Assembly: GCF_002854065.1 (NCBI RefSeq)
Contig: NZ_CP024147.1
Reading direction: 5' to 3' (one strand)
From: Escherichia coli
Lineage (GTDB): Bacteria; Pseudomonadota; Gammaproteobacteria; Enterobacterales; Enterobacteriaceae
Length of the DNA stretch: 64,000 nt
Under the pieces are notes generated by a model, which saw only the letters and a program-made list of their open reading frames with translations, was not told where the DNA came from and did not search any database. Positions 1-64,000 of the stretch are shown in pieces; positions within the stretch are counted from its first letter, which is position 1; every line of letters starts with the position of its first letter. Position numbers and translations under genes: made by a program.

Positions 1-2271
1 GGCGTTATCACGACGCGCCATCTGGTTGCCTTCCGGCGTCCAGCTACCGGCGAAAATCCAGCAACCACAGGAGGTTGTACCGTCATCGCGCAGTTGGGCG
101 AACGAGCTAAGTTGTTGGCCTTTCTTGACGATAACCGCACCGGTTGCCGGATCGGTAATATCGGCCAGCGCCTTACCGTTGCTCTCCATCGCTACTTCTT
201 CCGACTTCGGCTCATGCGGAATGGCGTAGTTCCAGGTCATGTTCAGCACCTGGTCCGGGTTCGCGCCACCCTGTTCGGCATACATCTTGCGCAAGCGCAG
301 GAAGATACCGGAGAGGATCTCGCCGTCAGTCAGCGCAATCCCCGGGGCGTCCGCACCTTTCCAGTGCCACTGCAACCAGCGACCTGAGTTAACGATTGAA
401 CCGTTCTCTTCCGCGAAGCAGGTCGATGGCAGACGGAACACTTCGGTCTGGATCTTCGACGAGTCAACTTCGTTCAGCTCACCGTGGTTCTGCCAGAAGT
501 TAGAGGTTTCAGTGTTCAGCGGGTCGATGGTGACGAGGAACTTCAGTTTCGACAGACAACCGATCACTTTGTTTTTGTTCGGGAATGAGGCAACAGGGTT
601 AAAGCCCTGGCAGATATAGCCATTGACCTTGCCCTCTTTCATCATCTCGAAGTATTGTAGGACGTCGTAGCCTTTATCCCACTTCGGCAACCAGTCAAAG
701 CCCCAGCTATTTTCCGCCGTCGCTTTATCACCAAAGAAGGCCTTCATCATAGAGACGAAGAATTTCGGGTAGTTGCCCCAGTAGTTTACCTGGCCTTCCA
801 GCAGCGGTTTTGGCGTGTTGGCGGTAAGGTAGGTTTGCAGATCGGTCTGCTTCTCGCTTGGCAGCGTCATGTAACCTGGCAGGCTCTGCGACAGAAGGCC
901 CAGGTCCGTCAGCCCCTGAATATTGGAGTGACCGCGCAGGGCGTTAACGCCGCCGCCTGCCATCCCCATGTTGCCGAGCAGCAGCTGGATCATCGCCATC
1001 GTACGAATGTTTTGCGCACCAACGGAGTGTTGCGTCCAGCCGAGGGCATACAGGAACGAGGCAGTTTTATCGTGAGCACTGGTTTCTGCGATGTATTCGC
1101 AGACTTTCAGGAACGCGTCTTTTGGCGTACCACAGATGTTTTCAACCACATCTGGCGTGTAGCGGGAAACGTGCTGTTTCAGCAAGTTCCACACGCAGCG
1201 CGGATGTTGCAGCGTGGTATCGCGTTTGGCGAAGCCGTTTTCGTCCAGTTCGTAAGTCCAGGAGGATTTATCGTACTTGCGTTTTTCCGCGTCGTAGCCG
1301 GTGAACAGGCCATCTTCAAAGCCGTAATCCTCACGCACGATCAGGCTGGCGTTGGTATAGGCTTCGGTGTATTCGCGGTTGAATTTTTCATTGTTCAGCA
1401 GGTACAGCAATACGCCTGACAGGAAAGCAATGTCAGTACCGGAACGAATAGGGGCATAGTAGTCAGCTACCGCCGCCGTACGCGTAAAGCGAGGATCGAT
1501 CACAATCAGCTTCGCGCCATTGTGAATTTTGGCTTCCATCGCCCAGCGGAACCCGACCGGGTGAGCTTCAGCGGCGTTACCGCCCATCACCACGACGAGG
1601 TTGGCGTTCTTGATGTCGACCCAGTGGTTGGTCATCGCACCGCGACCAAATGTTGGAGCAAGACTTGCTACCGTTGGTCCGTGTCAGACACGCGCCTGGT
1701 TGTCGACCGCGAGCATACCCAGCGCGCGGGAGAATTTTTGCGTTAAATAGCCGGTTTCGTTACTCGACGCGGAAGCACACAGCATCCCGGTGGAGAGCCA
1801 GCGGTTAACAGTCACGCCTTCGGCGTTTTGCGCAATGTAGTTAGCATCGCGGTCTTCTTTCATCAGTTTGGCGATGCGATCAAACGCCTCTTCCCAACTG
1901 ATTTGCTGCCATTTATCAGAACCTGGCGCACGGTATTCCGGAAACTTCAGACGGCTTTCGGAGTGGATGAAATCCACCAGGCCAGCGCCTTTCGGACAAA
2001 GTGCACCGCGGTTGACCGGGTGATCCGGATCGCCTTCGATATGGAAGATAGATGCTTTGGCGTTTTTTGCTCCGTCACCGAGGCTGTACATCAACAGCCC
2101 ACAGCCTACGGAACAATAGGTGCAGGTATTACGGGTTTCGCGGGTGCGCAGCAGTTTATACTGCCGGGTTTCCGCGAGTGCTACGCTGGGTGCAAAACCC
2201 AGTGCCGCTGCCGTGGTGCCTGCCATACCGCCAGCGCAGATCTTAAAGAACTGCCTTCTGCTGACCTGCAT
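1..2271 (-). CDS. fdoG: Formate dehydrogenase-O major subunit (selenoprotein), partial; N-terminus at 2271, runs off window start
   Basis: N-terminal Tat motif MQVSRRQFFK; molybdopterin oxidoreductase-like sequence; in-frame TGA at 1684-1686 with the same frame staying open to position 1. Confidence 0.9.
1640..1686 (-). other. Selenocysteine UGA codon (1684-1686) plus predicted SECIS hairpin immediately 3' in the coding frame
   Basis: Frame continues ...VDNQARV-U-HGPTVASLAPTFGRG...; position matches the Sec site of FdoG/FdnG/FdhF-type enzymes; hairpin not folded computationally. Confidence 0.6.
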
Positions 2272-2464
2272 GGATTGCTCCTTGTTTCGACATTGTCACG
2301 TCCCATTTACATTCGCTTGCTGCGTGTGCAGGGAGTGGGAGTTATTTTTCTTTGCGGAAGGGGCCGCAAAGGTCCAGAATTGGCTCAATTTCCCTCCATC
2401 CAGGAAGGGTTTGTAACAGAATACCATAATGTTGGTGTGTGTGTTCTTATCTGGTTAAGAGAAA

Positions 2465-3298
2465 GTGAAAAAAACACAGCAAAAAGAAATCGAAAATGTG
2501 ACAAATATCACAGGTGTTCGTCAAATTGAGTTATGGCGGCGTGATGATTTACAACACCCACGGTTAGATGAGGTCGCGGAAGAAGTTCCCGTTGCGCTGG
2601 TCTACAACGGCATTTCGCATGTGGTGATGATGGCGTCGCCCAAAGACCTTGAGTACTTTGCGCTCGGTTTTTCGCTTTCCGAGGGGATAATAGAAAGTCC
2701 GCGCGATATCTTCGGCATGGATGTCGTTCCTTCCTGTAATGGTCTTGAAGTACAAATTGAGCTTTCCAGCCGCCGCTTTATGGGGTTGAAGGAGCGCCGC
2801 CGGGCGCTGGCGGGACGTACGGGCTGTGGCGTATGCGGCGTGGAGCAACTTAATGACATCGGAAAACCGGTGCAGCCGCTACCGTTCACCCAGACGTTTG
2901 ATCTCAACAAACTGGATGATGCATTACGTCATCTCAACGATTTTCAGCCAGTGGGGCAACTGACTGGTTGTACTCACGCCGCTGCCTGGATGTTGCCATC
3001 TGGCGAACTGGTCGGCGGGCATGAAGACGTGGGTCGCCATGTGGCGCTGGACAAACTGTTAGGCCGCCGGTCACAAGAAGGGGAAAGCTGGCAGCAAGGT
3101 GCGGTACTGGTTTCCAGTCGTGCCAGTTATGAAATGGTGCAAAAGTCGGCGATGTGCGGCGTAGAGATTTTGTTTGCGGTGTCTGCCGCGACCACGCTTG
3201 CTGTAGAAGTGGCTGAGCGCTGTAATCTGACACTGGTAGGTTTTTGTAAACCGGGTCGGGCAACGGTTTATACCCATCCGCAGCGTTTGAGCAATTAA
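2465..3298 (+). CDS. fdhD: Formate dehydrogenase accessory sulfurtransferase FdhD
   Basis: 277-aa ORF, divergent from fdoG, recognised FdhD sequence. Confidence 0.9.
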
Positions 3299-3303
3299 TT
3301 AAA

Positions 3304-3345
3304 ATAAGTCCTGCGATATATATTAAATTGCAGGACTTATTCATT
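3304..3345 (+). terminator. Inverted repeat after fdhD (ataagtcctgc...gcaggacttat), putative terminator
   Basis: Perfect 11-bp inverted repeat just 3' of the fdhD stop. Confidence 0.4.
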
Positions 3346-3450
3346 TCGTGAATTTTATTATTTTATTTATAAACAAAATGCGTGTAGTGGCGTTTTCTTT
3401 TTTCATTTATTATGTTCACTCTCTTATCTATATATTTATAAGGCAATTAA

Positions 3451-4506
3451 ATGAAAAGGAATTTATTATCTTCCGCTATTATAGTCGCCATCATGGCCCT
3501 CGGTCTGACGGGTTGTGATGATAAAAAAGCCGAAACAGAAACGCCCCCGCCTGCCAATAGTCAACCTGCCGCACCAGCTCCTGAAGCGAAACCTACTGAA
3601 GCTCCCGTTGCAAAAGCAGATGCTAAACCTGAAACACCTGCGCAACCGGTGGTCGATGAACAAGCGGTTTTCGACGAAAAAATGGATGTCTATATCAAGT
3701 GCTACAACAAGTTACAGATCCCTGTACAGAACAGTCTGGCGCGTTATGCTGACTGGCTGAAAGATTTTAAACAGGGGCCAACGGGTAAAGAGAGCCTTGT
3801 TTATGGCATCTACGGCATTAGTGAATCCAATCTCTCTGAGTGTCAAAAAGGAATAAAAAGAGTCGTGGCGTTAACGCCTGCGCTGCAACCTATTGATGGC
3901 GTGGCGGTGAGTTATATTGATGCTGCCGTGGCGTTGGGTAATACCATTAACGAAATGGATAAATATTACACCCAGGAAAATTATAAAGACGATGCGTTTG
4001 CGAAAGGGAAAACGCTGCACCAGACATTCTTAAAAAATCTGGAAGCCTTTGAACCTGTAGCAGAATCTTATCATGCGGCGATTCAGGAAATTAATGATAA
4101 GCGCCAGCTTGCGGAACTGAAAAATATTGAAGAAAGAGAAGGGAAAACATTCCACTACTACTCTCTGGCAGTCATGATTTCAGCGAAACAAATTAATAAC
4201 CTGATATCGCAAGAGAAGTTTGATGTTGATGCGGCAATGAAGAAAGTCTCTGAACTGGAAACGCTGGTAGCGCAGGCCAAAGAAGCGGATAAAGGCGGTA
4301 TGAATTTCTCGTTCATTAATTCGGCAGACCAGTATCAACTCGAGACTAAAAAATATGTTCGCCGCGTCAGAGATAAAGTCCCGTACTCTGACTGGGATAA
4401 AGAGCATCTTCAGGATGCAAACACAAGCTGGATGGTCGAAGACTCATTTCCACGAGCGTTACGCGAGTACAACGAAATGGTTGATGACTATAATAGCCTG
4501 CGTTAA
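3451..4506 (+). CDS. yiiG: Lipoprotein YiiG (lipobox LTGC, Pro/Ala-rich linker)
   Basis: 351-aa ORF with signal peptide and lipobox; K-12 synteny. Confidence 0.85.
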   Translation: MKRNLLSSAIIVAIMALGLTGCDDKKAETETPPPANSQPAAPAPEAKPTEAPVAKADAKPETPAQPVVDEQAVFDEKMDVYIKCYNKLQIPVQNSLARYADWLKDFKQGPTGKESLVYGIYGISESNLSECQKGIKRVVALTPALQPIDGVAVSYIDAAVALGNTINEMDKYYTQENYKDDAFAKGKTLHQTFLKNLEAFEPVAESYHAAIQEINDKRQLAELKNIEEREGKTFHYYSLAVMISAKQINNLISQEKFDVDAAMKKVSELETLVAQAKEADKGGMNFSFINSADQYQLETKKYVRRVRDKVPYSDWDKEHLQDANTSWMVEDSFPRALREYNEMVDDYNSLR

Positions 4507-4527
4507 ACGTTTTTGATGATAAATGCA

Positions 4528-4552
4528 GTGTCGGATGCGGCGCATCCGACAC
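4528..4552. terminator. Palindromic hairpin (gtgtcggatgcg/cgcatccgacac) between convergent yiiG and frvR remnant
   Basis: Inverted repeat seen directly. Confidence 0.4.
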
Positions 4553-4554
4553 AG

Positions 4555-4993
4555 TTCACCCCTTGTGAAGTAACTCCATAAATGCCTCATATCCTGTTAA
4601 CCCGGCAATAACTTCTGCCGGATGCTGACACAATACGCTTGCCAGATAGCTGAATATTTTTAGCTCATGACGCGCATCGGCGGCGGCGCAGGCGATCAAA
4701 ACATGGTTAATGACTTCGTTATTCACCTCAACTGATTGGGCGAGGGTAATAAAAAATCCACGAAAACGTCGCTCCTGTTCGCTCCAGCAATGTGGGATGG
4801 CGAGGCGATTAACAATCAGGTTTTCACCTTCGCCTTCGCGGGCGATGATCCGTTGCGCTTCATCGGCGGTAATATGGTGTTGTGCGACTAATTGCGCACA
4901 AATTTGCCGGGTAATATGTTGCCAGCTTTCACCGCGTACATTCGAATAATGAAAACTTCCGGGGGCAGAGAAAAAACGCTCCGGTTGCTGGCG
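4555..4993 (-). pseudogene. frvR: 3' remnant (146 codons) of PTS-regulator gene frvR, C-terminal EIIA-like domain (AIPH motif); 5' part replaced by IS1
   Basis: Manual minus-strand translation gives an open frame from the IS1 junction to a stop at 4555-4557: ...NLIVNRLAIPHCWSEQERRFRGFF...MELLHKG*; lies next to yiiG as frvR does in K-12. Confidence 0.6.
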
Positions 4994-59541: not shown

Positions 59542-60621
59542 ATGAATGAGTTGGTGCAGATCCTGAAAAATACCCGTCAGCATTTAATGACGGGCGTTTC
59601 ACACATGATTCCCTTCGTGGTATCGGGCGGTATTTTGCTGGCGGTTTCCGTCATGTTGTATGGCAAAGGCGCAGTGCCGGATGCCGTAGCCGATCCGAAT
59701 TTGAAAAAACTGTTTGATATCGGCGTTGCGGGTTTGACGCTGATGGTGCCTTTCCTCGCCGCTTACATTGGTTACTCCATTGCAGAGCGTTCTGCGCTGG
59801 CTCCGTGCGCTATCGGTGCCTGGGTTGGTAACAGCTTTGGTGCGGGCTTCTTTGGTGCACTGATCGCCGGGATTATCGGCGGCATCGTGGTGCATTACCT
59901 GAAGAAAATTCCGGTGCATAAAGTTCTGCGCTCGGTGATGCCTATCTTCATCATTCCTATCGTCGGCACACTGATTACCGCAGGCATCATGATGTGGGGC
60001 TTGGGCGAGCCTGTAGGGGCGTTGACCAACAGCCTGACTCAGTGGCTTCAGGGGATGCAGCAGGGCAGCATTGTTATGCTGGCGGTGATCATGGGTCTGA
60101 TGCTGGCGTTCGATATGGGCGGTCCGGTTAACAAAGTGGCCTATGCCTTCATGCTGATTTGCGTTGCTCAGGGTGTTTATACCGTGGTGGCCATTGCTGC
60201 CGTGGGTATTTGTATCCCGCCGCTGGGGATGGGGCTGGCGACGCTGATTGGTCGTAAAAATTTCTCCGCAGAAGAGCGCGAAACTGGTAAAGCGGCGCTG
60301 GTGATGGGGTGCGTTGGCGTTACTGAAGGGGCGATTCCTTTCGCCGCTGCCGATCCGCTGCGTGTTATTCCTTCCATCATGGTCGGTTCAGTTTGTGGTG
60401 CAGTAACTGCGGCGCTGGTCGGTGCGCAGTGCTATGCAGGCTGGGGTGGTCTGATTGTGCTGCCGGTGGTTGAAGGTAAGTTGGGTTATATCGCAGCAGT
60501 GGCTGTCGGGGCGGTTGTGACGGCTGTTTGTGTGAACGTGCTGAAAAGTCTGGCGCGTAAAAATGGGGCTTCGACTGATGAAAAAGAAGACGACCTGGAT
60601 TTGGATTTTGAAATTAATTAA
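59542..60621 (+). CDS. frwC: PTS fructose-like EIIC component
   Basis: 359-aa polytopic membrane protein. Confidence 0.9.
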   Translation: MNELVQILKNTRQHLMTGVSHMIPFVVSGGILLAVSVMLYGKGAVPDAVADPNLKKLFDIGVAGLTLMVPFLAAYIGYSIAERSALAPCAIGAWVGNSFGAGFFGALIAGIIGGIVVHYLKKIPVHKVLRSVMPIFIIPIVGTLITAGIMMWGLGEPVGALTNSLTQWLQGMQQGSIVMLAVIMGLMLAFDMGGPVNKVAYAFMLICVAQGVYTVVAIAAVGICIPPLGMGLATLIGRKNFSAEERETGKAALVMGCVGVTEGAIPFAAADPLRVIPSIMVGSVCGAVTAALVGAQCYAGWGGLIVLPVVEGKLGYIAAVAVGAVVTAVCVNVLKSLARKNGASTDEKEDDLDLDFEIN

Positions 60622-61006: not shown

Positions 61007-63304
61007 ATGACGAATCGTATCTCTCGCCTCAAAACTGCACTGTTTGCCAATACCCGTGAAATCTCGCTGGAGCGTGCGCTGCTTTATACCGCCAGCCATC
61101 GGCAAACCGAAGGCGAACCGGTGATATTGCGCCGGGCGAAAGCAACAGTGTATATCCTTGAACATGTTGAAATTTCGATTCGTGATGAAGAACTGATTGC
61201 CGGTAACCGCACGGTGAAACCACGCGCCGGGATTATGTCGCCGGAAATGGACCCTTACTGGCTGCTGAAAGAGCTGGATCAATTCCCGACGCGTCCGCAG
61301 GACCGCTTTGCTATCAGCGAAGAAGATAAACGTATCTACCGCGAAGAGTTGTTCCCGTACTGGGAAAAACGTTCGATGAAAGATTTCATCAACGGGCAGA
61401 TGACGGATGAAGTAAAAGCCGCGACCAGCACGCAGATTTTCAGCATCAACCAGACGGATAAAGGCCAGGGGCACATTATTATTGATTACCCGCGCCTGCT
61501 GAATCACGGGCTGGGTGAGCTGGTAGCGCAAATGCAGCAACATTGTCAGCAACAGCCGGAGAATCACTTTTATCAGGCAGCGCTGTTACTGCTCGAAGCC
61601 TCGCAGAAACACATTTTGCGTTACGCCGAACTGGCGGAAACGATGGCGGCAAGCTGCACTGATGCCCAGCGTCGCGAAGAACTGCTGACTATTGCGGAGA
61701 TCTCCCGCCATAACGCCGAACATAAGCCGCAGACGTTCTGGCAGGCGTGCCAGTTATTCTGGTACATGAACATCATTCTGCAATACGAATCCAACGCCAG
61801 TTCGCTATCGTTGGGGCGCTTCGACCAGTATATGTTGCCGTTCTATCAGGCATCATTAACCCAGGGCGAAGATGCGGCGTTCCTGAAAGAACTGCTCGAA
61901 TCTTTATGGGTGAAATGCAACGACATCGTGCTGTTGCGCTCCACCAGTAGCGCGCGCTATTTCGCAGGTTTCCCGACCGGCTATACCGCACTGCTCGGCG
62001 GGTTAACCGAGAACGGACGTAGCGCGGTGAACGTGCTTTCGTTCCTTTGCCTTGACGCTTATCAAAGCGTGCAATTACCGCAACCGAACCTCGGTGTGCG
62101 CACTAACGCCTTGATCGACACGCCGTTCCTGATGAAAACCGCAGAAACCATTCGCCTCGGAACCGGTATTCCGCAAATCTTCAACGATGAAGTGGTGGTG
62201 CCAGCGTTCCTCAACCGTGGCGTTTCGCTGGAAGATGCGCGCGACTATTCCGTAGTAGGCTGTGTGGAATTATCTATTCCCGGCAGAACCTACGGCTTGC
62301 ATGACATCGCGATGTTTAATCTGCTGAAAGTGATGGAAATCTGCCTGCATGAAAATGAAGGCAATGCTGCGCTGACTTATGAAGGTTTACTGGAGCAGAT
62401 CCGCGCCAAGATCAGCCACTACATCACCCTGATGGTTGAGGGCAGCAATATTTGTGATATCGGCCATCGCGACTGGGCACCTGTACCGCTGCTCTCGTCT
62501 TTTATCAGCGATTGTCTGGAAAAAGGTCGCGATATTACCGATGGCGGCGCGCGTTATAACTTCTCCGGCGTACAGGGGATCGGTATCGCCAACCTGAGCG
62601 ATTCTCTCCATGCGTTGAAAGGGATGGTTTTTGATCAACAGCGTTTAAGTTTTGACGAATTGCTGTCGGTATTAAAAGCCAACTTTGCAACGCCAGAAGG
62701 CGAAAAAGTCCGCGCTCGCTTAATTAACCGCTTTGAGAAATACGGTAACGATATCGACGAGGTGGATAACATTAGCGCCGAACTGTTGCGCCACTACTGC
62801 AAAGAAGTGGAAAAATACCAGAACCCGCGCGGCGGTTACTTCACGCCGGGATCGTATACCGTTTCTGCTCACGTCCCGTTGGGATCGGTGGTTGGCGCGA
62901 CGCCAGACGGTCGTTTTGCCGGAGAACAGCTGGCAGACGGCGGCTTGTCACCCATGCTGGGCCAGGACGCACAAGGGCCAACAGCGGTACTGAAGTCAGT
63001 CAGTAAGCTCGATAACACGCTGCTGTCTAACGGTACGTTGCTGAACGTGAAATTCACTCCGGCGACCCTGGAAGGTGAAGCGGGATTACGCAAACTGGCC
63101 GACTTCTTACGAGCGTTTACCCAGCTTAAGTTGCAGCATATTCAGTTTAACGTGGTGAACGCCGACACGTTGCGGGAAGCGCAACAGCGCCCACAAGATT
63201 ATGCCGGGCTGGTGGTGCGCGTTGCCGGATACAGCGCCTTCTTTGTCGAACTGTCGAAGGAGATCCAGGATGACATCATCCGCCGGACAGCGCATCAGCT
63301 GTAA
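61007..63304 (+). CDS. pflD: Glycyl-radical enzyme, pyruvate formate-lyase-like PflD
   Basis: 765-aa ORF; C-terminal glycyl-radical motif region (VVRVAGYSAFFVEL). Confidence 0.9.
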   Translation: MTNRISRLKTALFANTREISLERALLYTASHRQTEGEPVILRRAKATVYILEHVEISIRDEELIAGNRTVKPRAGIMSPEMDPYWLLKELDQFPTRPQDRFAISEEDKRIYREELFPYWEKRSMKDFINGQMTDEVKAATSTQIFSINQTDKGQGHIIIDYPRLLNHGLGELVAQMQQHCQQQPENHFYQAALLLLEASQKHILRYAELAETMAASCTDAQRREELLTIAEISRHNAEHKPQTFWQACQLFWYMNIILQYESNASSLSLGRFDQYMLPFYQASLTQGEDAAFLKELLESLWVKCNDIVLLRSTSSARYFAGFPTGYTALLGGLTENGRSAVNVLSFLCLDAYQSVQLPQPNLGVRTNALIDTPFLMKTAETIRLGTGIPQIFNDEVVVPAFLNRGVSLEDARDYSVVGCVELSIPGRTYGLHDIAMFNLLKVMEICLHENEGNAALTYEGLLEQIRAKISHYITLMVEGSNICDIGHRDWAPVPLLSSFISDCLEKGRDITDGGARYNFSGVQGIGIANLSDSLHALKGMVFDQQRLSFDELLSVLKANFATPEGEKVRARLINRFEKYGNDIDEVDNISAELLRHYCKEVEKYQNPRGGYFTPGSYTVSAHVPLGSVVGATPDGRFAGEQLADGGLSPMLGQDAQGPTAVLKSVSKLDNTLLSNGTLLNVKFTPATLEGEAGLRKLADFLRAFTQLKLQHIQFNVVNADTLREAQQRPQDYAGLVVRVAGYSAFFVELSKEIQDDIIRRTAHQL

Positions 63305-64000
63305 CGTTGTGGAAACGCGCCGCAATGATGTGGCGCGCATTTTCAACATTCAGCGTTATTCACTGAATGACGGCGAGGGCATTCGTACGGTGGTCTTTTT
63401 TAAAGGCTGTCCACATCTTTGCCCGTGGTGTGCTAATCCGGAGTCGATCTCCGGCAAAATCCAGACGGTACGCAGAGAGGCGAAATGTCTGCACTGTGCG
63501 AAATGTTTGCGTGATGCGGATGAATGCCCCTCCGGGGCGTTTGAACGGATTGGTCGCGATATCAGCCTTGACGCGCTGGAACGGGAAGTGATGAAAGATG
63601 ACATTTTCTTTCGCACGTCCGGCGGCGGCGTCACGCTTTCTGGCGGCGAAGTGTTAATGCAGGCGGAGTTTGCTACCCGTTTTTTACAGCGACTGCGGCT
63701 GTGGGGTGTGTCATGTGCCATTGAAACTGCCGGAGACGCACCAGCCAGCAAGCTGTTACCACTGGCGAAATTGTGCGATGAAGTGTTGTTCGATTTAAAA
63801 ATCATGGATGCGACTCAGGCGCGGGATGTGGTGAAGATGAACCTGCCACGCGTGATGGAGAATCTGCGTTTGCTGGTGAGTGAGGGTGTCAACGTGATCC
63901 CGCGTTTACCGCTGATCCCTGGTTTCACGCTCAGCCTGGAGAATATGCAGCAGGCGCTGGATGTACTGATCCCGCTGAAAATCAGGCAGATCCATCTGTT
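63270..64000 (+). CDS. pflC: Glycyl-radical enzyme activase PflC, partial (runs off window end)
   Basis: ATG at 63270 overlapping the pflD 3' end; radical-SAM CxxxCxxC motif (CPHLCPWC) visible in my translation. Confidence 0.85.
   Translation, partial: MTSSAGQRISCNVVETRRNDVARIFNIQRYSLNDGEGIRTVVFFKGCPHLCPWCANPESISGKIQTVRREAKCLHCAKCLRDADECPSGAFERIGRDISLDALEREVMKDDIFFRTSGGGVTLSGGEVLMQAEFATRFLQRLRLWGVSCAIETAGDAPASKLLPLAKLCDEVLFDLKIMDATQARDVVKMNLPRVMENLRLLVSEGVNVIPRLPLIPGFTLSLENMQQALDVLIPLKIRQIHL

Follow-up and report, generated by a model that had tools for sequence, protein, structure and literature searches.

The 35-nt overlap of pflD and pflC in Escherichia coli: position, conservation and possible role of the activase start codon

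The pflC gene of Escherichia coli is annotated as starting within the last codons of pflD, which raises the question of whether this start is genuine or a start-codon error, and of how far translation of the two genes is tied together. The window, i.e. the whole stretch of DNA that was analysed, is 64,000 nt long and contains the following features.

Genes and products of the pflD-pflC locus

61007-63304, plus strand: coding sequence of pflD, for a glycyl radical enzyme of 765 aa, from the open reading frame list and with the same extent in RefSeq.
63270-64000, plus strand: pflC coding sequence, 292 aa radical-SAM activase, the first 243 codons being within the window.
63270-63304, plus strand: pflD/pflC overlap of 35 nt, with pflC in the +1 frame relative to pflD.
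63270-63272, plus strand: pflC start codon ATG, the PflD codons GAT (D755) and GAC (D756) being read as G-ATG-AC.
63408-63431, plus strand: PflC radical-SAM cluster motif C47-x3-C51-x2-C54, read from the sequence.

The pflD stop codon TAA occupies positions 63302-63304, the end of PflD reading ...IQDDIIRRTAHQL-TAA. The overlap encodes D755-L765 of PflD and the stop (11 sense codons plus the stop) and, on the pflC side, M1-C11 and two bases of codon 12; the ATG sits within the conserved, C-terminal IQDDII motif of PflD. As pflC extends past the 3' end of the window, only 243 of its codons are included. A preliminary description had placed the pflC start at ATG 63270, with 35 nt shared with the 3' end of pflD; these coordinates are exact and those of RefSeq are identical. 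The RefSeq/PGAP annotations of E. coli CUWW06 and BW25113 show pflD-pflC with an identical 35-nt overlap (pflD at 1508..3805 and pflC at 3771..4649 in locus coordinates), and the locus is found in 5418 of 5426 complete E. coli genomes. Over 63000-64000, the window has 98.4% identity with BW25113; within 63200-63400 a single nucleotide differs, A for G at 63324, giving N19 in place of D19. The overlap is already known from the standard E. coli annotation, genuine but ordinary.

The identities given to the two products in the same description, glycyl radical enzyme (pflD) and activase (pflC), stand, the HMM scores being above the curated cut-offs. PflC matched the NCBIfam equivalog NF007483 with 626.8 bits (cutoff 326) over residues 1-292 of 292, which assigns it to the PflC type, and the subfamily TIGR02494 with 258.9 bits (cutoff 174.35), together with Pfam Radical_SAM and Fer4_12; this scoring used the full-length sequence from locus L001, 100% identical over 63000-64000, the window itself holding 243 codons. 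The three cysteine residues of the motif C47-P-H-L-C51-P-W-C54, of CX3CX2C spacing, are invariant in 18 orthologs. PflD matched the NCBIfam equivalog NF007437 with 1724 bits (cutoff 1109), is a PflD-type protein (TIGR01774) with Pfam PFL-like and Gly_radical (residues 645-747) matches, and carries the glycyl-radical motif RVAGYS (...VVRVAGYSAFF...). In gut bacteria it is reported to be the glycyl radical enzyme that cleaves 1,5-anhydromannitol-6-phosphate (PMC12441222). In a literature search, the two gene names led mostly to unrelated flagellar or RiPP genes.

The pflC start codon and the N-terminal extension of PflC

63257-63262, plus strand: pflC Shine-Dalgarno (SD) sequence AAGGAG, 7 nt before the ATG, formed by the PflD codons K751 (AAG) and E752 (GAG).
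63305-63332, plus strand: translated linker of the PflC extension, codons 12-21, differing between orthologs in both length and sequence; codon 12 has its first two bases inside the overlap.
63316-63337, plus strand: stable RNA hairpin of 9 bp with an AUGA loop, beginning 11 nt after the pflD stop.

Start codons were compared in a set of 80 genome loci, 51 of them proteobacterial. The pflC frame is offset by +1 in 51 of the 51 proteobacterial loci and the ATG is at -35 in 49, so that the comparison with orthologs which had been suggested as a check upholds the annotated start. The predicted duplex of the pflC SD with the anti-SD, at -8.8 kcal/mol, belongs to the strongest class within pflD (0.5% of positions), and this SD is stronger than those of frwC, frwB and pflD. 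Codon choice in pflD follows both elements: 39 of 44 Lys codons at the K751 site are AAG (gene-wide mean 0.37), 42 of 51 Glu codons at the E752 site are GAG (gene-wide mean 0.41) and 49 of 51 loci have GAT at the D755 site (gene-wide mean 0.61), including genomes in which GAT is rare (0.15, 0.25). Among 123 conserved degenerate codons of the pflD 3' end in 25 genera, D755-GAT, K751-AAG and D756-GAC are the three least variable, D755-GAT having the lowest synonymous entropy. Synonymous pflD sites in 25 genera preserve both the ATG and the SD, so chance does not explain the overlap, and this codon usage shows selection keeping the synonymous pflD choices that form the pflC ATG and SD. The in-frame starts further upstream (ATG 63201, TTG 63222 and TTG 63243) were rejected, being not conserved, devoid of an SD or severed by in-frame stops in orthologs; such stops rule out longer overlaps in L005, L012, L017 and L033.

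If the start had been mis-annotated, PflC would begin at GTG 63309 (V14) or at GTG 63330 (V21) and there would be no overlap. Long overlaps are rarer than short ones, PflA and the Firmicutes activases begin about where PflC residues 19-21 align, and in two close homologs of 279 aa (P0102, P0103) the JGI calls start at a GTG 4 nt after the stop. The first 20 residues of PflC are also poorly conserved, and in an AlphaFold2 model from an 18-sequence alignment residues 1-13 had pLDDT values below 50; this fits a disordered leader, to which we give little weight as the whole model is weak (mean 66.5). Against these points, the two GTG codons are missing from most orthologs, and at least 13 loci contain no ATG, GTG or TTG at all between the pflD stop and the PflC core (e.g. 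L010, L011, L017, L021 and L025, and further L026, L030, L032, L033, L035, L036, L038 and L040). Neither GTG has an SD (duplexes of -3.3 and +0.9 kcal/mol versus -8.8 at the ATG), and GTG 63330 is buried in the post-stop hairpin (-16.7 kcal/mol, z -3.4 versus dinucleotide shuffles), with an opening cost of 19 kcal/mol. The linker behaves as coding sequence: its variability is 3-nt periodic (entropy 0.76/0.82/1.42 and 0.77/0.50/1.34 at codon positions 1/2/3), no stop occurs in 283 codons from 25 genera, and its 15 spacer lengths are all equal to 1 modulo 3, i.e. only in-frame indels are found. This pattern shows the stretch between the pflD stop and the PflC core to be translated. Together with the constraint on synonymous pflD sites, it makes a mis-annotated start very improbable; an annotation artefact would show a downstream start that is conserved and has a ribosome-binding site, preceded by a stretch that behaves as non-coding, and neither mark is present. 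The finding that had been named as fatal to the overlap, orthologs favouring a downstream non-overlapping start, was looked for in Proteobacteria and did not appear. Judged from these comparisons, ATG 63270 is a genuine, evolutionarily maintained pflC start and not a mis-call. No pflC entry was found in the supplements of three initiation-site or N-terminomics papers, INRI-seq and TRAINSPOTTER included, and our search gave no experiment that maps the PflC N-terminus or initiation site directly.

The exact start is not universal. In Vibrio-type loci the -35 position is preceded by a weak SD or none (AAA GAA), and another in-frame ATG stands at -11; L042 and L051 have this -11 ATG only. The Firmicutes orthologs have no long overlap, their pflC starting 2-20 nt after the stop or at ATGA/TAATG. 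The PflD C-terminus is as long in Firmicutes as in Proteobacteria; it was therefore pflC whose start moved upstream, and not pflD that was extended, to create the overlap. The ortholog comparison shows this shift in Proteobacteria, where it added a poorly conserved extension of 13-40 aa. Ribosomes starting at 63270 read 11 codons dictated by pflD, then the short, poorly conserved linker, and enter the conserved activase core at A22.

RNA structure and coupling to pflD translation

63238-63281, plus strand: predicted SD hairpin (63238-63245 with 63255-63262) and AUG hairpin (63268-63272 with 63277-63281).

Translational coupling of pflD and pflC, which the preliminary description proposed from the overlap, is a plausible hypothesis. 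Termination-reinitiation, in which a ribosome ending pflD would back up about 32 nt, be captured by the SD and ATG and translate pflC, can draw on the strength of the pflC SD and on the 34-nt coat-lysis overlap of phage fr, which gave rise to the bidirectional scanning model (PMC10666635); in addition, the hairpin that begins 11 nt past the stop would meet the leading edge of a terminating ribosome and could bias its movement backwards. This process is however efficient only within -8 to +6 nt: coupling in synthetic operons fell with growing overlap and was absent at -25 nt, and native E. coli pairs are steeply distance-dependent and rare outside that range (PMC12548453, PMC10666635). The pflD-pflC distance of -35 nt falls far outside the -8 to +6 interval that defines the class (PMC10666635), and the hairpin lies anywhere from +1 to +28 nt from the stop, depending on the lineage. 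We regard termination-reinitiation as quite improbable here. The -35 overlap is of 'phase 1', in which a simple stop mutation cannot shorten it to -4 or -1.

The predicted SD and AUG hairpins have energies of -8.5 kcal/mol (z -1.6) and -6.2 kcal/mol (z -4.2), respectively. Opening the pflC ribosome-binding site would cost 13.1 kcal/mol in the window versus 5-6 kcal/mol for the pflD and frwB starts. A conserved SD-sequestering hairpin was nevertheless rejected as proof of coupling: 94% of cells can pair in 51 orthologs, with covariation in this set not above the shuffled controls, the RNAalifold consensus is different and weak, and in 24 other genera the opening cost is that of ordinary coding background. 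An internal pflC promoter was also rejected, nothing promoter-like being found in 62500-64000 by consensus scan; one terminator-like match, at 63219-63237, is within chance expectation.

The strong SD that pflC carries makes de novo initiation possible, and initiation would most likely proceed by SD-driven 30S binding inside the pflD tail. The first base of the ATG and the first base of the pflD stop are 32 nt apart, much like the 34-nt overlap of phage fr; with the established size of the ribosome footprint, an initiating and a terminating ribosome fit side by side at this distance. From its place about one footprint behind the pflD stop, the ATG would be alternately occluded and unfolded by the ribosomes translating pflD, so PflC synthesis would be tied to pflD translation and the activase probably held below the level of its substrate enzyme. 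RNA-unfolding coupling of the phage fr or MS2 coat-lysis kind may operate at pflC. Taken as a whole, the explanation of a genuine ATG 63270, a start shifted upstream and SD-driven initiation, presumably tied to pflD translation, is in our judgement very likely.

The overlap might also serve no coupling function, the start having moved to the nearest usable ATG with an SD and PflC being made independently of pflD translation; relocation would then have followed from the burial of the ancestral core-adjacent ribosome-binding site in, or its replacement by, the hairpin-bearing spacer. The pflC SD is strong enough to suit this reading, the post-stop hairpin covers the ancestral start position, the peptide encoded by the overlap varies freely with the synonymous sites of pflD, and in orthologs the ribosome-binding site costs as much to open as ordinary coding sequence does. 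A ribosome-binding site within a translated frame cannot, on the other hand, wholly escape ribosome traffic, and its high opening cost in the window suggests that help from upstream ribosomes is needed; independence from pflD translation appears rather unlikely. Programmed +1 frameshifting to a PflD-PflC fusion, the internal SD being a frameshift stimulator and not a ribosome-binding site, has a parallel in prfB, where an SD-like element likewise lies upstream of the +1 frameshift, and fusions through 1-nt deletions are encoded in L063 and P0108 (322 aa, Gly_radical and Radical_SAM). Each of these fusions is a single record carrying indels, the SD is not followed by a slippery or hungry-codon/stop context, the 7-nt spacing to the ATG is optimal for initiation, and the conserved feature is the ATG itself (GAT, not GAC), needless for frameshifting, which can practically be dismissed.

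The 3' arm of the post-stop hairpin spans GTG 63330 together with the codons for A22 and R23; among 190 native windows of its length in the locus none is more stable, and the equivalent region is in the top 5% of stability in 30 of 50 loci. Hairpins of unrelated sequence are found in Escherichia, Klebsiella/Enterobacter, Serratia, Enterobacillus, Zophobihabitans, Gilliamella, Vibrio and Necropsobacter, with 2 compensatory pairs in Gilliamella. In the Klebsiella/Enterobacter hairpin 86.5% of cells pair, the covariation score being not significant (50 of 500 shuffles); a mixed alignment of 31 Enterobacterales gave no hairpin consensus because two stem registers exist, and an Rfam search of the region returned sub-threshold noise only. 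An intrinsic terminator was rejected, as the terminator scan made no call there. A U-rich tail (AUUUUC or AUUUUU, Ile-Phe codons) follows the hairpin in Enterobacteriaceae alone; in distant lineages no U-run comes after the long hairpins. The PflC extension could be a translated intercistronic RNA element whose stem-loop is under selection as RNA and would set a high PflD:PflC ratio. This stem-loop might act, for instance, as a 3' stabiliser of pflD mRNA, a weak attenuator or a block to forward movement of terminating ribosomes, and relocation of the pflC start into pflD would have allowed the activase still to be made by reading through the element. We consider this unlikely.

The overlap in the standard annotation is real and not a start-codon error, and pflD offers a clean example of synonymous-site selection that preserves the start codon and ribosome-binding site of its downstream neighbour. 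This is useful for expressing PflC or PflD with PflC, since recoding pflD would destroy the pflC start. General understanding is left unchanged, and the recurrent post-stop hairpin is the only part that might deserve an experiment.

Comparison with known systems

The frwC-frwB-pflD-pflC-frwD operon of E. coli K-12 (RefSeq/PGAP) has the same genes, relative coordinates and 35-nt overlap, with no structural difference. The coat-lysis pairs of phages fr (34 nt) and MS2 (about 50 nt) are similar long same-strand overlaps (PMC10666635, PMC12548453): their downstream start lies at least about one ribosome width before the upstream stop, which would allow initiation beside termination, and structure is predicted around the downstream ribosome-binding site. 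In the phages, termination dependence and the inhibitory structure were proven experimentally, whereas in pflD-pflC they are putative, and pflC differs by a strong SD of its own. Short-overlap pairs (-4 ATGA, -1 TAATG and -8) also run in one direction within an operon and encode proteins linked in function; the Erysipelotrichales orthologs of pflD-pflC (L067-L069, L076) use ATGA/TAATG, whereas the E. coli overlap of -35 is outside the efficient window. The E. coli paralogs ybiY-ybiW, acting on 1,5-anhydroglucitol-6-phosphate in a related pathway (PMC12441222), belong to the same families (TIGR02494, TIGR01774) but in reversed order, activase first, with a 5-nt spacer and no overlap. Finally, PflA, the pyruvate formate-lyase activase (PDB 3c8f, 3cb8), shares the radical-SAM core, its residue 3 aligning with PflC residue 21, but has neither the Cys-rich insert of PflC nor its N-terminal extension of 20 residues.

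The pflD-pflC junction and its neighbours

The preliminary description had placed the start of the pflC activase gene within the 3' end of the glycyl radical enzyme gene pflD, and this 35-nt overlap is borne out by both the sequence coordinates and the RefSeq annotation, with the following layout:

61007-63304, + strand: pflD ORF, ending ...KEIQDDIIRRTAHQL-TAA, stop codon at 63302-63304
63270-63272, + strand: pflC start codon ATG, in the +1 frame relative to pflD
63270-63304, + strand: pflD/pflC overlap, 35 nt, corresponding to the last 11 sense codons and the stop codon of pflD

From 63270, pflC was translated over 243 codons up to the window end. The upstream gene encodes a PflD-type glycyl radical enzyme (NF007437, 1724 bits for a cut-off of 1109; Pfam PFL-like and Gly_radical matches) and the downstream gene a PflC-type radical-SAM activase (NF007483, 626.8 bits for a cut-off of 326, over residues 1-292 of 292), with further matches to TIGR02494 and Pfam Radical_SAM. 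RefSeq gives exactly the same layout in E. coli CUWW06 and BW25113 (pflD 1508..3805, pflC 3771..4649), and of 5426 complete E. coli genomes 5418 contain the region. Both genes and their overlap already belong to the standard annotation. In PMC12441222, which cites Ma et al., PflD is reported to be the glycyl radical enzyme that cleaves 1,5-anhydromannitol-6-phosphate and that the frw phosphotransferase system serves.

Around this pair, the frwC ORF of the window (59542-60621, 359 aa) is intact, and it is annotated as frameshifted in the near-identical CUWW06 locus (L001:54-1122). Where the comparison of the window with CUWW06 begins (59500), the two sequences do not line up, as would be expected from an indel at that place. 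Further along the CUWW06 locus (L001:4649-4992), only 1 nt lies between the stop of pflC and the start of frwD, and 14 nt are shared by the 3' ends of frwD and yijO, which converge on each other, so that the genes downstream of pflC are tightly packed too. At the Kluyvera genomosp. 3 YDC799 locus (L063:2940-3080), the glycyl-radical motif codons lack one G, GCG GGC TAC reading GCGGCTAC; the pflD frame consequently runs into the pflC frame. The predicted product is a PflD-PflC fusion whose RVAGYS motif is destroyed, and the missing base points either to a pseudogene or to a sequencing error in a homopolymer. One protein record from E. coli (P0108, 322 aa) carries Gly_radical and Radical_SAM domains together.

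Start codon of pflC and codon choice in pflD

The open pflC frame begins at 63159 and offers ATG 63201, TTG 63222, TTG 63243, ATG 63270, GTG 63309 and GTG 63330 as in-frame candidates, among which only 63270 is preceded by a Shine-Dalgarno (SD) sequence, AAGGAG at 63257-63262 with a spacer of 7 nt. The anti-SD duplex of this site, at -8.8 kcal/mol, equals the strongest value within pflD (0.5% of positions) and surpasses those of the frwC, frwB and pflD SDs; the two GTG codons downstream of ATG 63270 score +0.9 and -3.3. We then compared the junctions of 80 fetched genome loci encoding PflC relatives beside a PflD-like gene, of which 51 are proteobacterial (Enterobacterales, Orbales, Pasteurellaceae, Vibrionaceae, Hahella, one Propionivibrio and one Pseudovibrio). 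The activase frame is +1 relative to pflD in all 51, and an ATG lies 35 nt ahead of the pflD end in 49. A downstream start clear of the overlap is not supported by these orthologs, since at least 13 of the 51 have no ATG, GTG or TTG from the pflD stop to the conserved core; starts farther upstream are excluded in E. albertii, Entomohabitans, Yersinia and Enterobacillus, where the frame is interrupted by stops. The two exceptions (L042 and L051) have lost the -35 ATG by replacement of GAT with GAC, leaving an ATG at -11 as the sole overlapping start. This second in-frame ATG is formed by CAT-GAR (CAT-GAA in L042 and L051) where PflD ends in ...HEL*, and was seen in L042, L043, L044, L047-L049, L051 and L066 (Vibrio, Hahella, Pseudovibrio). 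On this comparative evidence, the start call rises from annotated to well supported. A literature search for pflC initiation-site or N-terminomics data found none.

Several of the loci with the -11 ATG have AAA GAA in place of the AAGGAG SD. Two close homologs in JGI gene calls (P0102 and P0103, 279 aa) are called from a GTG 4 nt past the pflD stop (VEPRSDEV...), so databases disagree on the pflC start in some genomes.

The pflC ATG is built from the PflD codons GAT-GAC, D755-D756 of the conserved IQDDII motif, and its SD from AAG-GAG, K751-E752.

Codons of the pflC initiation signals in proteobacterial pflD
D755: GAT in 49 of 51; gene-wide mean 0.61
K751: AAG in 39 of 44 Lys codons; gene-wide mean 0.37
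E752: GAG in 42 of 51; gene-wide mean 0.41

GAT is kept at D755 even in Propionivibrio and Pseudovibrio, where it makes up 15% and 25% of Asp codons. When synonymous entropy was scanned over the last 150 pflD codons, with one sequence per genus from 25 genera, D755-GAT, K751-AAG and D756-GAC were the lowest of 123 conserved degenerate columns, and Q754-CAG tied for next-lowest. The remaining synonymous sites in the overlap (Ile, Arg, Thr, Ala, Gln and Leu codons) are free to vary and thereby alter PflC residues 3-10, one variant reading MTSFAAPRISC; PflC C11 is forced by CTG-T(AA/GA). Since the initiation-signal codons are held while these sites vary, what selection preserves is the initiation signals, not the peptide that the overlap encodes. 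The codon statistics show, as ordinary biology, pflD synonymous sites under selection for the pflC initiation signals. The D756 codon (63272-63274, PflC codon 2) is GAC in 45 of 51 loci, though over the whole gene GAC is the less used Asp codon; PflC codon 2 thereby stays ACN (Thr) and does not become ATN (Ile), and the choice may reflect a second-codon preference or Met excision.

Origin of the overlap and the PflC linker

The PflD end position is unchanged in 19 Firmicutes loci (...IQ[DN]DII.R.EH..*), and the Firmicutes/Clostridia activase starts 2-20 nt past the pflD stop with its SD within the spacer. The Erysipelotrichales/Holdemanella orthologs (L067-L069, L076) have classical ATGA or TAATG stop/start overlaps. 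Because the PflD end is shared and PflA aligns with PflC only from PflC residue 21, the proteobacterial overlap arose by an upstream shift of the pflC start, not by extension of pflD, and this shift gave PflC an N-terminal extension of 13-40 residues. The stretch from the pflD stop to the conserved core (A22 onward) has 15 different lengths, from 4 to 85 nt, every one 1 mod 3, and the 283 codons that it adds up to over 25 genera include no stop (about 1e-6 expected for random sequence). Its variability peaks at the third codon position, with entropies at positions 1/2/3 of 0.76/0.82/1.42 and 0.77/0.50/1.34 in the two length groups, and by these measures it behaves as coding sequence. In an AlphaFold2 model of PflC, itself weak overall, residues 1-13 stay below a pLDDT of 50, a weak hint at a disordered leader.

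Within this translated linker, from 11 nt past the pflD stop and covering GTG 63330, a stable, GC-rich hairpin was predicted, with counterparts in other lineages:

63316-63337, + strand: RNA hairpin, 9 bp, loop AUGA, predicted -16.7 kcal/mol, z -3.4 against dinucleotide shuffles
Gilliamella: post-stop stem of 12 bp
Vibrio maritimus: post-stop stem of 13 bp
Necropsobacter: post-stop stem of 13 bp
Zophobihabitans: post-stop stem of 12 bp
Serratia: post-stop stem of 7 bp
Enterobacillus: post-stop stem with a 7-bp core, 9 bp if extended

It tops, for stability, 190 same-length windows tiled across pflD and pflC of its locus, and among 50 proteobacterial loci the corresponding region ranks within the top 5% for stability in 30 and within the top 1% in 20. 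Within Escherichia the apical pair is A-U in the window, G-C in E. albertii and a G/U combination, unpaired in its fold, in K-12. In lineages whose linkers are long and unrelated, the hairpins are likewise long and unrelated in sequence; the Gilliamella stem shows 2 compensatory pairs among four species. Covariation in the Klebsiella/Enterobacter group was not significant, the hairpin region matched no Rfam family, and a strong post-stop hairpin is absent from about one third of lineages. A U-rich tail follows the hairpin in Enterobacteriaceae only, which makes a general terminator role unlikely. That the linker is a translated former intercistronic RNA element tuning the PflD:PflC ratio is a speculative reading, which we consider rather doubtful.

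Translational coupling and comparison with known overlaps

The preliminary description had also taken the overlap to suggest translational coupling. Termination-reinitiation is efficient only at about -8 to +6 nt, and in synthetic operons coupling fell with overlap and was gone at -25 nt; short overlaps outnumber long ones several-fold, and "phase 1" overlaps (-8, -11, ..., -35) are kept more often than phase 2 (PMC12548453, PMC10666635). By its distance, pflD-pflC thus lies outside the short-overlap termination-reinitiation class. Coupling of long overlaps by RNA unfolding is possible, because one ribosome can initiate while another terminates, as in the coat-lysis overlaps of phages fr (34 nt) and MS2 (about 50 nt) (PMC12548453, PMC10666635). 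ATG 63270 is 32 nt ahead of the pflD stop, about one ribosome footprint, and we infer that this geometry suits the unfolding model. Folding predictions for the window pair the SD with 63238-63245 and put the AUG in a 5-bp hairpin; opening of -15..+5 at the pflC start would cost 13.1 kcal/mol, compared to 5.1 at the frwB start and 6.0 at the pflD start. These pairings are kept in 94% of cells over 51 orthologs, mainly through protein sequence conservation; their covariation over the same orthologs was not above controls, and the opening cost in 24 other genera was that of ordinary coding sequence (z from -1.25 to +1.19). A scan of 62500-64000 found no promoter-like site, consistent with co-transcription. 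SD-driven de novo initiation is regarded as the putative main route to PflC, and some putative dependence of pflC translation on pflD translation is reasonably likely.

The paralogous ybiY-ybiW pair of E. coli BW25113 (L083:7631-10968) differs in having the reverse order, with the activase upstream and a 5-nt spacer, so the long overlap is specific to pflD-pflC. The long coat-lysis overlaps of the phages resemble that of pflD-pflC in geometry only.
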